64,000 nucleotides of DNA from Escherichia phage vB_Eco_T-01 (PQ438391.1), one strand, 5' to 3'. Counted from the stretch's first letter, positions 3,139-8,053 are shown. Made by a program: numbers and translations. Notes: generated by a model from the letters alone, not told the origin.

Positions 3139-3999
3139 ATGAAACAATACCAAGATTTAATTAAAGACATTTTTGAAAACGGCTATGAAACTGATGACCG
3201 AACAGGCACAGGAACAATTGCTTTGTTCGGTACTAAATTACGCTGGGATTTAACTAAAGGTTTTCCTGCAGTAACAACTAAGAAGCTCGCCTGGAATGCA
3301 TGTATTTCTGAGTTATTGTGGTTCTTATCAGGAAGTACTAACGTAAATGATTTACGTCAACGTACTCATGGATCTTTAATTGCAGGAAAAACAATTTGGG
3401 ATGAAAACTACGAAAACCAGGCCAAAGACTTAGGTTATCATAGCGGTGAACTTGGTCCAATTTACGGAAAACAGTGGCGTGATTTTGGTGGTGTAGATCA
3501 AATTGTAGAAGTTGTTAATCGTATTAAAACATTTCCCAATGATAGACGTCAAATTGTGTCGGCATGGAATCCAGCTGAACTCAAGCAGATGGCATTACCA
3601 CCTTGTCATATGTTCTATCAGTTTAATGTGCGTAACGGATACCTTGACCTACAATGGTATCAACGTTCGGTAGATGTTTTCCTCGGTCTTCCATTTAACA
3701 TCGCGAGTTATGCTGCTCTTTTACATATTGTTGCTGACATGTGTGAACTAGTTCCGGGCGATTTGGTATTCTCGGGTGGTAATACACACATTTATTCTAA
3801 CCATATTGAGCAATGCAAAGAGATATTAAATAGAACTCCTATGGATCTATGCAAACTTAGTATTAATTGGCCTAATGGATTCAGTCAATGCGATACTGAA
3901 ACTCAAATGTATTGGTTAACTGAATATATGACAGCACGAGATTTCGTTCTCAAAGATTATCAGTCCCATGGTGTCTTGAAAGGAAAGATGGCGGTGTAA
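3139..3999 (+). CDS. td: Thymidylate synthase, uninterrupted (no group I intron)
   Basis: Continuous 286-aa [29 protein letters not shown]...; ThyA active-site region ...[11 protein letters not shown]... present. Confidence 0.95.
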
Positions 4000-4024
4000 T
4001 TTTAATTTAATTGAGAGGATATAT

Positions 4025-4288
4025 ATGATTTTACGATTTAAGGATACTTCTGGTGTTGTTCTTTTTACACTTCCTAATCCAAGCGAGTTAGAAGTTCCAG
4101 GGCCAGAACAGCCTATTATCATTTATGGCAAAAAATATTATACTCATAAAATGACTCGTGAGTATTTTGACAATAAAATTTCTACAGTTAAAACTTCTTC
4201 AGATTGTTATTATGATATTACTGTTTTAACGGAAAAACAATATGACGAACTATTACCGCGCGGGCCGTCTATGCCGGGTAGTGAATAA
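4025..4288 (+). CDS. Hypothetical protein, 87 aa (nrdA.2-like position)
   Basis: ORF with GAGAGGA ribosome-binding site. Confidence 0.5.
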
Positions 4289-4568: not shown

Positions 4569-6823
4569 TTAATGTTATCAAAAGTAGTGGTGTTTCTCAG
4601 AGCTTTGACCCGCAAAAAATTATTAAAGTTTTATCTTGGGCAGCTGAAGGAACATCTGTAGATCCTTATGAATTATATGAAAATATTAAATCATATCTCC
4701 GTGATGGAATGACAACTGATGACATTCAAACCATTGTCATTAAGGCTGCAGCGAATTCTATTTCGGTTGAAGAGCCTGATTATCAATATGTAGCTGCACG
4801 TTGTTTAATGTTTGCTCTTCGTAAGCATGTTTATGGGCAGTATGAACCACGTTCATTTATTGATCATATTTCTTATTGTGTAAATGAAGGTAAATATGAC
4901 CCTGAATTATTGTCAAAATATTCAGCAGAAGAAATTACATTTTTAGAATCAAAAATTAAGCACGAGCGGGATATGGAATTTACTTATTCCGGGGCGATGC
5001 AATTAAAAGAAAAATATCTAGTTAAAGATAAAACCACTGGTCAAATTTATGAAACTCCACAGTTTGCATTTATGACTATTGGAATGGCATTGCATCAAGA
5101 TGAACCTGTTGATAGATTAAAACACGTTATCCGTTTTTATGAAGCAGTATCTACTCGACAGATTTCATTGCCAACTCCTATTATGGCTGGTTGTCGTACT
5201 CCAACTCGACAGTTTAGTTCATGCGTTGTTATTGAAGCAGGTGATTCGCTGAAGTCTATCAATAAGGCTTCTGCTTCAATTGTTGAGTATATTTCTAAAC
5301 GAGCTGGAATTGGCATTAACGTTGGTATGATTCGTGCTGAAGGTTCTAAGATTGGCACAGGTGAAGTGCGTCATACTGGCGTTATTCCTTTTTGGAAACA
5401 TTTTCAGACTGCTGTTAAATCATGTTCACAAGGCGGAATTCGTGGCGGCGCTGCTACTGCTTATTATCCTATTTGGCATTTGGAAGTTGAAAATCTTCTC
5501 GTTTTGAAAAATAACAAAGGCGTAGAAGAAAACCGTATCCGTCATATGGATTATGGCGTTCAACTGAATGATTTGATGATGGAACGTTTTGGAAAGAACG
5601 ACTACATTACTTTGTTCAGTCCACACGAAATGGGTGGCGAGCTTTATTATTCTTATTTTAAAGACCAAGACCGTTTCCGTGAATTGTATGAAGCTGCAGA
5701 AAAAGACCCTAATATTCGTAAAAAGCGTATTAAAGCCCGTGAACTATTTGAATTGCTCATGACTGAACGCTCAGGAACAGCAAGGATTTATGTACAGTTC
5801 ATCGATAATACGAATAACTATACTCCATTTATTCGTGAAAAAGCACCTATTCGTCAGAGTAACTTGTGTTGTGAAATTGCTATTCCAACAAATGATGTGA
5901 ATAGTCCTGATGCTGAAATTGGATTGTGTACTCTCTCTGCATTCGTACTGGATAATTTTGACTGGCAAGACCAAGATAAAATTAATGAATTGGCAGAAGT
6001 TCAAGTTCGTGCTCTTGATAATCTTTTGGATTACCAAGGATATCCAGTTCCTGAAGCAGAAAAAGCTAAAAAGCGTCGTAACCTCGGTGTAGGTGTTACT
6101 AACTATGCAGCTTGGCTGGCAAGTAACTTTGCTTCTTATGAAGATGCTAACGATTTAACACATGAACTATTTGAGAGATTACAGTATGGACTCATTAAAG
6201 CATCCATTAAGCTCGCCAAAGAAAAAGGACCTTGCGAATATTATTCAGACACTCGTTGGTCTCGAGGCGAATTACCTATCGACTGGTACAATAAAAAGAT
6301 TGACCAAATCGCAGCTCCAAAATACGTTTGTGACTGGTCGTCGCTGCGGGAAGACCTTAAGCTCTTTGGCATCCGTAATAGCACATTATCAGCACTTATG
6401 CCATGTGAGTCATCTTCCCAAGTTTCTAACAGTACAAACGGTATCGAGCCTCCACGTGGACCAGTCTCTGTTAAAGAATCAAAAGAGGGTTCCTTTAATC
6501 AAGTCGTGCCCAATATTGAGCATAACATAGACCTCTATGATTATACATGGAAATTAGCTAAGAAAGGTAATAAACCTTATCTTACTCAGGTAGCTATTAT
6601 GCTGAAATGGGTATGTCAATCAGCTTCAGCGAATACATATTATGACCCGCAGATTTTTCCAAAAGGAAAGGTTCCAATGTCAATAATGATTGATGACCTT
6701 TTGTATTTCTGGTATTTTGGCGGAAAAAATTTCTATTATCATAATACCCGTGATGGTTCTGGTACTGATGATTATGAAATAGAAACTCCAAAAGCTGAAG
6801 ATTGTTCATCCTGTAAATTATGA
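4559..6823 (+). CDS. nrdA: Aerobic ribonucleotide reductase, large subunit
   Basis: 754 aa; class I RNR alpha features including ...SNLCCEIA...; length equals T4 NrdA. Confidence 0.95.
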   Translation: MQLINVIKSSGVSQSFDPQKIIKVLSWAAEGTSVDPYELYENIKSYLRDGMTTDDIQTIVIKAAANSISVEEPDYQYVAARCLMFALRKHVYGQYEPRSFIDHISYCVNEGKYDPELLSKYSAEEITFLESKIKHERDMEFTYSGAMQLKEKYLVKDKTTGQIYETPQFAFMTIGMALHQDEPVDRLKHVIRFYEAVSTRQISLPTPIMAGCRTPTRQFSSCVVIEAGDSLKSINKASASIVEYISKRAGIGINVGMIRAEGSKIGTGEVRHTGVIPFWKHFQTAVKSCSQGGIRGGAATAYYPIWHLEVENLLVLKNNKGVEENRIRHMDYGVQLNDLMMERFGKNDYITLFSPHEMGGELYYSYFKDQDRFRELYEAAEKDPNIRKKRIKARELFELLMTERSGTARIYVQFIDNTNNYTPFIREKAPIRQSNLCCEIAIPTNDVNSPDAEIGLCTLSAFVLDNFDWQDQDKINELAEVQVRALDNLLDYQGYPVPEAEKAKKRRNLGVGVTNYAAWLASNFASYEDANDLTHELFERLQYGLIKASIKLAKEKGPCEYYSDTRWSRGELPIDWYNKKIDQIAAPKYVCDWSSLREDLKLFGIRNSTLSALMPCESSSQVSNSTNGIEPPRGPVSVKESKEGSFNQVVPNIEHNIDLYDYTWKLAKKGNKPYLTQVAIMLKWVCQSASANTYYDPQIFPKGKVPMSIMIDDLLYFWYFGGKNFYYHNTRDGSGTDDYEIETPKAEDCSSCKL

Positions 6824-6874
6824 TATAATTTGACTCATGGACGAGTCACTATCTATTAACTAAGTGGAAAATTT

Positions 6875-8053
6875 ATGAGCACAGTTTTTAATACAAATCC
6901 AGTTGATGTTTTAAAAGAACCTATGTTTTTTGGTTCAGGTCTTGGTATTGCGCGTTATGATATTCAACGTCATAAAGTTTTTGAAGATTTAACCGAAAAG
7001 CAGTTGTCATTTTTCTGGCGTCCTGAAGAAGTAAACTTAATGATGGATGCTGCGCAATTTAATAAGCTTCCTCAGTATCAGCAAAATATTTTTACTAATA
7101 ACCTGAAGTATCAATCACTTTTGGATAGCATTCAGGGTCGTGCGCCGTCTGCTGTACTTATGTCATTAATTTCAGACCCAAGCCTTGATACATGGGTTGC
7201 TACGTGGACTTTTAGTGAAACTATTCACAGCCGTTCATATACACATATCATGCGAAATCTTTATACTGATCCATCGAAAGTATTTGATGAAATTGTATTA
7301 GATGAAGCTATTATGAAACGTGCTGAATCCATTGGACGTTATTATGATGATGTTCTGATTAAAACTCGTTATTGGGAAAACGCTAAAGCTGATATCGAAT
7401 ACCAAAAAGAAATTAATGCAGACGAAGACGTTATTGAAGATGCCATAGAGCATGAAATGTATTGGAAACGTGAACTAATGCGCTCTCTTTACCTCTGCCT
7501 GCACGTAATCAACGCATTGGAAGCTATTCGTTTTTATGTATCTTTCGCATGTACCTTTAACTTCCACAAGAATATGGAAATCATGGAAGGTAATGCCAAG
7601 ATTATGAAGTTCATTGCACGTGATGAACAGCTTCACCTTAAAGGCACCCAATATATTATTCGTCAACTTCAATCTGGTACTGATGGTGATGAATGGGTTA
7701 AAGTTGCCAAAGAGTGTGAACAAGAAGCAGTTGATATTTTCATGGAAGTTAACCGCCAAGAAAAAGATTGGGCAGTTCATTTATTTAAAGATGGCGATGT
7801 TCCTGGATTAAATACAAATAGCATGTGGAGCTTTATTGATTACTTAACTGTATCTCGTATGAAACAGTGCGGTCTTCCATGCCCAATTACCGATGCTCCG
7901 GTTAAACACCCGTATCCTTGGATTCGTGAATATCTTAATTCTGATAATGTTCAATCCGCGCCACAAGAAGTAGAACTGTCATCTTACCTTGTTGCACAGA
8001 TTGATAATGATGTTGATGATAAAGTTATGATGAGTTTTAAAAAATACTTTTAA
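6875..8053 (+). CDS. nrdB: Aerobic ribonucleotide reductase, small subunit, uninterrupted (no intron)
   Basis: Continuous 392-aa ORF starting 51 bp after nrdA. Confidence 0.95.
   Translation: MSTVFNTNPVDVLKEPMFFGSGLGIARYDIQRHKVFEDLTEKQLSFFWRPEEVNLMMDAAQFNKLPQYQQNIFTNNLKYQSLLDSIQGRAPSAVLMSLISDPSLDTWVATWTFSETIHSRSYTHIMRNLYTDPSKVFDEIVLDEAIMKRAESIGRYYDDVLIKTRYWENAKADIEYQKEINADEDVIEDAIEHEMYWKRELMRSLYLCLHVINALEAIRFYVSFACTFNFHKNMEIMEGNAKIMKFIARDEQLHLKGTQYIIRQLQSGTDGDEWVKVAKECEQEAVDIFMEVNRQEKDWAVHLFKDGDVPGLNTNSMWSFIDYLTVSRMKQCGLPCPITDAPVKHPYPWIREYLNSDNVQSAPQEVELSSYLVAQIDNDVDDKVMMSFKKYF

Follow-up and report, generated by a model that had tools for sequence, protein, structure and literature searches.

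The td-nrdA.2-nrdA.1-nrdA-nrdB region of Escherichia phage vB_Eco_T-01 (PQ438391.1)—4915 bp at positions 3139-8053 of the 64,000-nucleotide stretch that we analyzed, hereafter the window, from whose first letter all coordinates are counted—is very probably an ordinary, element-free allele of the T2 type found in Tequatrovirus. Five elements present in T4, namely the td intron with I-TevI, the mobE+nrdB.1 pair, the nrdB intron with I-TevIII, segE, and segD, are cleanly absent from the window, which confirms what an earlier sequence-only reading had proposed for this region. The arrangement was thus correctly described but is ordinary, because T2 and most relatives have long been known with the same layout, and the element-free T2-type arrangement is already known.

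The window lacks five elements of T4

The genome belongs to Tequatrovirus, and in a blastn comparison with T4 (NC_000866) the window runs parallel to T4 147411→82002 on the opposite strand. This alignment breaks at each of the five T4 elements listed above. The td–nrdB region matches hundreds of Tequatrovirus (T4-like) genomes, many of which align unbroken over the entire 4915 bp, the top match being Kha5h at 97.2% in a single alignment piece. Over the first 25 kb of the window, the top relative reaches only ~95.4% and its match is split into seven pieces, so the genome is a mosaic Tequatrovirus and does not duplicate any phage on deposit. No Rfam family, group I introns included, matches anywhere in the 64-kb window, and tblastn searches of the window with I-TevI, I-TevIII, MobE, NrdB.1, SegD, SegE, and the MobE-type homing-endonuclease gene (HEG) product returned nothing below E=0.2. 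Alignment and searches for remnants agree at all five places.

The empty state is the majority state

This absence is not unusual. Our counts of elements are per database record at a coverage of at least 80% and include RefSeq/GenBank duplicates and laboratory T4 variants, which are not independent lineages; the denominators are 492 records with the whole region and roughly 490-670 with the flanking genes. Of 497 phage records matched by a 171-bp query across the empty nrdA-nrdB junction, 376 align with it contiguously, and T2, vB_EcoM_FT, and Serratia phage PhiZZ30 do so at 100% identity. The td intron is found in 197 records (roughly 35-40% of those bearing td), the nrdB intron in 118, segE in 159, and segD in 53, and the complete T4-type mobE+nrdB.1 pair in 20, with a further class of partial matches numbering 143. 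Although these counts are rough, their direction is clear: the T4 elements are the minority state, and empty alleles are the majority. T4 has itself been regarded as an outlier in its load of mobile elements (PMC2988022). The implied use of T4 as the norm in the sequence-only reading was therefore misleading, as the layout of T2 and RB32 is identical to that of the window and most nrdA-nrdB junctions on record are empty.

Could the window nevertheless descend from a lineage that once carried these elements and lost them, either by precise deletion or because a relative free of the elements recombined with it, so that empty sites were restored? The Goddard-Burt cycle reportedly leads from gain through degeneration to loss. 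The mosaic nature of the genome (25-kb best relative at 95.4% in seven pieces) is compatible with such a history, as is the fact that the nrd junction is 100% T2-like yet lies beside a td of another allele, and together these features make it plain that allele replacement by recombination is frequent. However, none of the five sites holds a remnant, a locus that was never invaded looks the same in sequence as one in which an empty allele has been put back, and a loss is needless to explain what is in any case the majority state. We therefore consider secondary loss unlikely.

A minor, strongly divergent td allele with an unoccupied I-TevI site

The td gene is continuous, and the features that bear on the I-TevI site are the following.

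3139-3999, plus strand: td, thymidylate synthase (TS), 286 codons, an uninterrupted open reading frame (ORF) with a match to Pfam PF00303 Thymidylat_synt over 1-266/266 (E=3e-95).
3687/3688, plus strand: empty insertion site of the td intron, where T4 jumps from 144564 to 143546 with no window sequence between.
3658-3707, plus strand: unoccupied I-TevI homing site (-30 to +20), from alignment with spliced T4 and T2 td.
3661-3665, plus strand: CAACG, the I-TevI cleavage motif (5'-CNNNG-3') at positions -27 to -23, at the natural distance, 23/25 nt upstream of the insertion site.
3798-3978, plus strand: 3' segment of td (nt 660-840) with high divergence, its identity being 46% to T4 and T2 and 59% to RB32.

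The encoded protein is 80% identical to the TS of T4 and 81% identical to that of T2, two proteins that are nearly identical to each other. The segment at td nt 660-840 is highly divergent, with identity to T4 down to 30-60% per 60-nt interval. At the DNA level, the gene is 99% identical to td of phage bov9_1, and a protein search with the 86 C-terminal residues returned only 25 phage records at 95% identity or more, the next class lying at 67% and T4 at 55%. The td of the window is thus a minor and strongly divergent allele.

Within the homing site from -30 to +20, 10 of 50 positions differ from T4, all of them synonymous, so the amino-acid sequence is identical to that of T4. The 15-bp DNA spacer of the site matches T4 at 13 of 15 positions, with changes at positions 1 and 4. 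Single-substitution scans have identified positions 2, 6, and 8 and the change C3T as sensitive (PMC4065259), and these reported positions (2, 3, 6, and 8) are unchanged in the window. In the 20-bp primary binding region, the window agrees with T4 at 15 of 20 positions and with T2 at 17 of 20; T2 itself has five changes relative to T4, three of them at positions that are changed in the window as well. Cleavage of this td by I-TevI, as predicted from these comparisons, is plausible.

These same differences raise the opposite possibility, that td is intron free because this allele is a poor substrate for I-TevI or a poor recombination partner for a td of the T4 type. Beyond the 10 synonymous differences, five of which fall in the binding region, this idea draws on the distribution of the intron, which is joined to the allele in none of its 25 records as compared with roughly 35-40% of td-bearing records overall, and on the low identity of the 3' part of td, as a result of which repair would be harder to resolve within exon 2. 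When the 3' end of the T4 intron was fused to exon 2 of the window and used as a chimeric query, no record in the collection joined the intron to this allele. However, the missing chimera does not separate resistance from co-conversion, because homing through the divergent segment would erase the allele, and chimeras are expected to be lacking either way; moreover, the 25 records are related to one another. The cleavage motif is kept at its natural distance and the sensitive spacer positions are intact (PMC4065259), T2 serves as the recipient in crosses of T4 with T2 (as cited in PMC2790892) in spite of its five differences in the binding region, and I-TevI has been described as tolerant of substitutions (PMC2988022). 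On balance, a refractory td appears improbable. If true, the population would contain a standing "escape" allele, which would be part of the reason that the td intron has not swept through it. Reduced Tev-mTALEN activity has been reported on the td of RB32 (PMC4065259), which we rejected as a guide to the site in the window, since the RB32 site is quite different (CAAAG...).

nrdB has unoccupied predicted targets for MobE and I-TevIII

The nrdB gene is also continuous, and the lengths given for it and td in the sequence-only reading are borne out by ORFs with full-length Pfam matches and no Rfam match.

6875-8053, plus strand: nrdB, 392 codons, uninterrupted and of the T2 type, with a full-length match to Pfam PF00268 Ribonuc_red_sm.
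6965-7034, minus strand: predicted MobE target, nrdB nt 91-160, identical to T2 at 70/70 positions; the nick at nt 122-126 would fall at window 6996-7000 of the non-coding strand.
7516-7575, plus strand: unoccupied I-TevIII homing site with the nrdB intron insertion site (7550/7551), where T4 jumps from 139058 to 138457, from the alignment.

Its protein is 97.4% identical to NrdB of T2 and 92.3% identical to that of T4 (388 aa). MobE has been shown to nick T2 nrdB in vivo, with the nicks mapped to nt 122-126, and through this nicking mobE is passed on to progeny, as is, in trans, the nrdB intron (PMC2790892). Since nrdB nt 91-160 of the window is identical to T2, whose nick region is a proven target, at all 70 positions, the predicted susceptibility of this nrdB to MobE is well supported by sequence; the corresponding segment of T4's own nrdB differs from the window at many positions. 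The I-TevIII site shows six differences in 60 nt from the intron-deleted nrdB of T4, of which those near the insertion point are at -5 and -2, the latter shared by T2. From -31 to -6 it is identical to the intron-deleted T4 sequence, a span that includes the positions at which I-TevIII of RB3 cleaves, -14/-16 of the insertion site (PMC1865063). This nrdB is thus likely to be a target of an RB3-type I-TevIII.

The nrdA-nrdB spacer and its inverted repeat

Between td and nrdB, the window carries the following features.

4025-4288, plus strand: nrdA.2 (DUF5496), Pfam PF17600, E=1.6e-60, collinear with T4.
4242-4568, plus strand: nrdA.1 (DUF4326), Pfam PF14216, E=5.5e-22.
4559-6823, plus strand: nrdA, an ORF of 754 codons, 96.7% identical in DNA to T2 nrdA.
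6824-6874, plus strand: nrdA-nrdB spacer, 51 bp, an empty mobE/hef site, identical to T2 at 51/51 positions and to RB32 at 47/51.
6831-6848, plus strand: inverted repeat TGACTC-ATGGAC-GAGTCA, with a 6-bp stem and a 6-nt loop, from a sequence scan.

As the sequence-only reading had stated, only 51 bp separate nrdA from nrdB, and mobE is lacking there; the break at mobE+nrdB.1 places window 6819-6875 against T4 140420/139719. The spacer holds no ORF, begins with TATAAT (6824-6829), and ends with the ribosome-binding region of nrdB. A middle promoter of nrdB has been placed in or near it (PMC2790892).

The inverted repeat had also been noticed, and it does exist, but the further suggestion that it could mark a homing or recombination site did not hold up. 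An equally good repeat appears in 13% of shuffled spacers and in 143 of the 1254 non-overlapping 51-mers of the window (11%), the RNA fold of the spacer is unremarkable (z=-0.98), and the tail of the repeat, CTATCTATTA, is only a weak T-run. That the repeat is nonetheless a functional element—for recognition, recombination, or termination—at which HEGs insert might be argued from its perfect 6-bp stem, from the conservation of this stem in T2 and RB32, from a simple scan that flagged it as terminator-like, and from the location of mobE-type genes of relatives in this very spacer. However, most of the spacer is conserved in T2 and RB32 along with the stem, and four RB32 substitutions would miss the stem by chance about one time in three. 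Furthermore, MobE nicks within nrdB nt 122-126 rather than in the spacer, and mobE-less phages are reported to lack a terminator at the nrdA-nrdB junction (PMC2790892). Finally, occupied alleles have the whole spacer replaced. The repeat is thus no better than chance, a role as terminator or recombination site is not supported, and a function in HEG insertion is highly improbable.

What happens to the spacer in an occupied allele is seen in bov9_1, in which a 243-aa MobE-type HNH + NUMOD1 gene (L004 5183-5914) fills the nrdA-nrdB gap so exactly that it adjoins nrdA with its start and nrdB with its stop. Over its first 105 residues, this endonuclease shares 63% identity with MobE, and bov9_1 nrdA turns T4-like in its last ~30 nt (in comparison with window 6790-6823). 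When the occupied T4 and bov9_1 alleles were searched by blastn-short for leftovers of the 51-bp spacer, only chance matches of 7-8 nt appeared. A T4-like nrdA 3' end together with a replaced spacer is the pattern expected from co-conversion during homing, in which the hairpin gets no role.

As a separate observation, the 3' end of nrdA co-varies with the presence of the MobE-type gene. T4 carries mobE (141 aa) and nrdB.1 (NUMOD3) where bov9_1 carries its one full-length gene, and the T4 pair may have arisen by the splitting or rearrangement of a MobE-type gene.

Predicted behavior in mixed infections

Group I introns and free-standing HEGs pass between co-infecting T-even phages: an empty allele is cut by the endonuclease, and the occupied allele serves as the repair template. 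T4 has gathered an exceptional number of such elements, most of its relatives being without them. In the reading favored here, the 51-bp spacer is the native intergenic region, which comprises the promoter region, the 5' untranslated region, and the ribosome-binding site of nrdB. In a mixed infection with T4, MobE would be expected to nick the nrdB of the window, which would then acquire mobE and the nrdB intron along with it, and I-TevI would probably cut its td.

Several points weigh against an ordinary, element-free allele that is open to these elements. The I-TevI site departs from T4 at one position in five (10/50), with five of the changes inside the 20-bp primary binding region, and the td intron is found in 0 of the 25 records with this td allele. 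The susceptibility of the targets is predicted from sequence. By-eye inspection upstream of TATAAT 6824-6829 gave no convincing match to a MotA box, and because no box was recognized, our statement about a promoter in the spacer is taken from the published placement (PMC2790892). The frequencies, in turn, count records, duplicates and laboratory T4 variants among them, rather than independent lineages.

With these points taken into account, an ordinary T2-type allele remains by far the most probable reading, and the claim that the genome is a naive target for T4 homing elements holds to a different degree for each endonuclease. It is well founded for MobE, on the strength of 70/70 identity to T2, and likely for I-TevIII, in view of the identical stretch from -31 to -6 in nrdB; for I-TevI, whose CAACG motif is kept but whose site carries the td differences described above, including five in the binding region, it is plausible only.

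The segE and segD junctions

The remaining two elements are missing from junctions far downstream of nrdB.

33527-33576, strand not assigned: inh/uvsW spacer, 50 bp, empty segE site, with a break in the T4 alignment at 33520-33540 and no SegE remnant.
38583-38665, strand not assigned: 23/24 spacer, 83 bp, empty segD site, with a break in the T4 alignment at 38594-38655.

Both spacer lengths hold as the sequence-only reading gave them (about 50 bp for uvsW-inh), and the positions of segD between 23 and 24 and of segE between inh and uvsW, which it had named for T4, are correct according to the T4 annotation. The first ~36 nt of the inh/uvsW spacer, on the inh side, are common to T4, after which the sequences diverge. 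On the minus strand of the 23/24 spacer lies the terminator hairpin of gene 23, GGGACC-UUCG-GGUCCC. The target of SegE lies in uvsW. SegD has no known target (PMC2988022).

Next to the segE site, uvsW (503 aa) and uvsW.1 are separate ORFs in the window (31759-33526, minus strand), parted by a stop codon and a hairpin, GGGC-UUCG-GCCC. The T4 reference has instead a single fused uvsW of 587 aa, and the difference comes down to a 1-nt indel and three substitutions at the junction.

An insert between genes 18 and 19

A gene absent from T4 occupies the junction of genes 18 and 19.

44643-45293, minus strand: 216-aa ORF, a putative free-standing endonuclease with a zinc ribbon and an HNH motif.

The insertion relative to T4 measures 654 bp in blastn (44643-45298), and 47 of 668 records have the ORF at this junction, among them RB3, RB5-10, and HP3. 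A D-H ... N ... N/H motif is present, and D168, H169, N191, N200, and K203 are invariant in 28 homologues. Searches of Pfam, NCBIfam, and PDB sequences, HNH profiles included, gave no match, and in PHROGs the ORF is phrog_5104, of unknown function. It is a sporadic, unannotated gene, probably of the HNH type. The sequence-only reading had seen a different nuclease gene here: the insert is indeed absent from T4 and its catalytic-motif residues are conserved, but no HNH profile recognizes it.

Other differences from T4

Apart from these elements, the window differs from T4 at several places. A 115-aa ORF (2747-3094, phrog_1928), with no Pfam or NCBIfam match, lies between frd and td, two genes that overlap there in T4. 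The segment of ~415 bp that holds it (2721-3144) is bordered by a 9-bp direct repeat, TAAATGAAA, at 2721 and 3136, and it is also found in T2, in RB32 (annotated "flanked by 9 bp repeat"), and in bov9_1. Between frd.1 and frd are two ORFs not in T4, at 1557-1892 (DUF7247, phrog_3566) and 1901-2146 (phrog_3183); T2 and RB32 have the second, apparently without the first at that position. Between pseT.1 and pseT, a 100-aa ORF (11100-11402, phrog_2364, function unknown) is inserted relative to T4. Hoc (34267-35685) has 472 aa as against 376 aa in T4, and hoc contains a tandem duplication at 34555-35123 (288 bp, two copies, 77% matching) that adds one Ig/PKD-like domain. Conversely, at 15522/15523 the window is without ~125 bp that T4 has between rIII and 30.9 (T4 130659-130782).

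Significance

The finding correctly places this genome among T-even phages that resemble T2 and are poor in mobile elements, and in itself matters little. It leads to the prediction that in mixed infections T4 would show localized marker exclusion at nrdB and probably also at td, which is textbook T-even biology. Of more practical value, the genome and bov9_1/G50 form a near-isogenic pair for a MobE-type insertion, the minor td allele could be useful for studying the tolerance of I-TevI, and the HNH-like family at 18/19 is unannotated.

Comparison with known T-even phages

T4 (NC_000866) shares its core genes and their order with the window, and the codons at its intron insertion sites are conserved. 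It differs in having a 1017-bp td intron with I-TevI, 700 bp of mobE+nrdB.1 in place of the spacer, and a 598-bp nrdB intron with a defective I-TevIII. It is also without the frd/td ORF, and its NrdB has 388 aa. T2 (AP018813), by contrast, has features identical in size to those of the window throughout: td of 861 bp, the 348-bp frd/td ORF, nrdA of 2265 bp, the 51-bp spacer, and nrdB of 1179 bp. Its DNA is 96.7% identical in nrdA and 95.3% in nrdB, and fully identical in the spacer (51/51) and in nrdB nt 91-160 (70/70). However, the td of T2 is another allele than that of the window, with 76.7% identity in DNA, 81% in protein, and 46% in the 3' segment. RB32 (NC_008515) has the same layout and gene order as T2 and the window, and both RB32 and T2 are apparently without, at the corresponding position, the DUF7247 ORF (1557-1892) that the window carries upstream of frd. 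Finally, vB_EcoM_bov9_1 and G50 are 97.3% identical across the region and have the td allele of the window (99%), but their nrdA-nrdB site is occupied.

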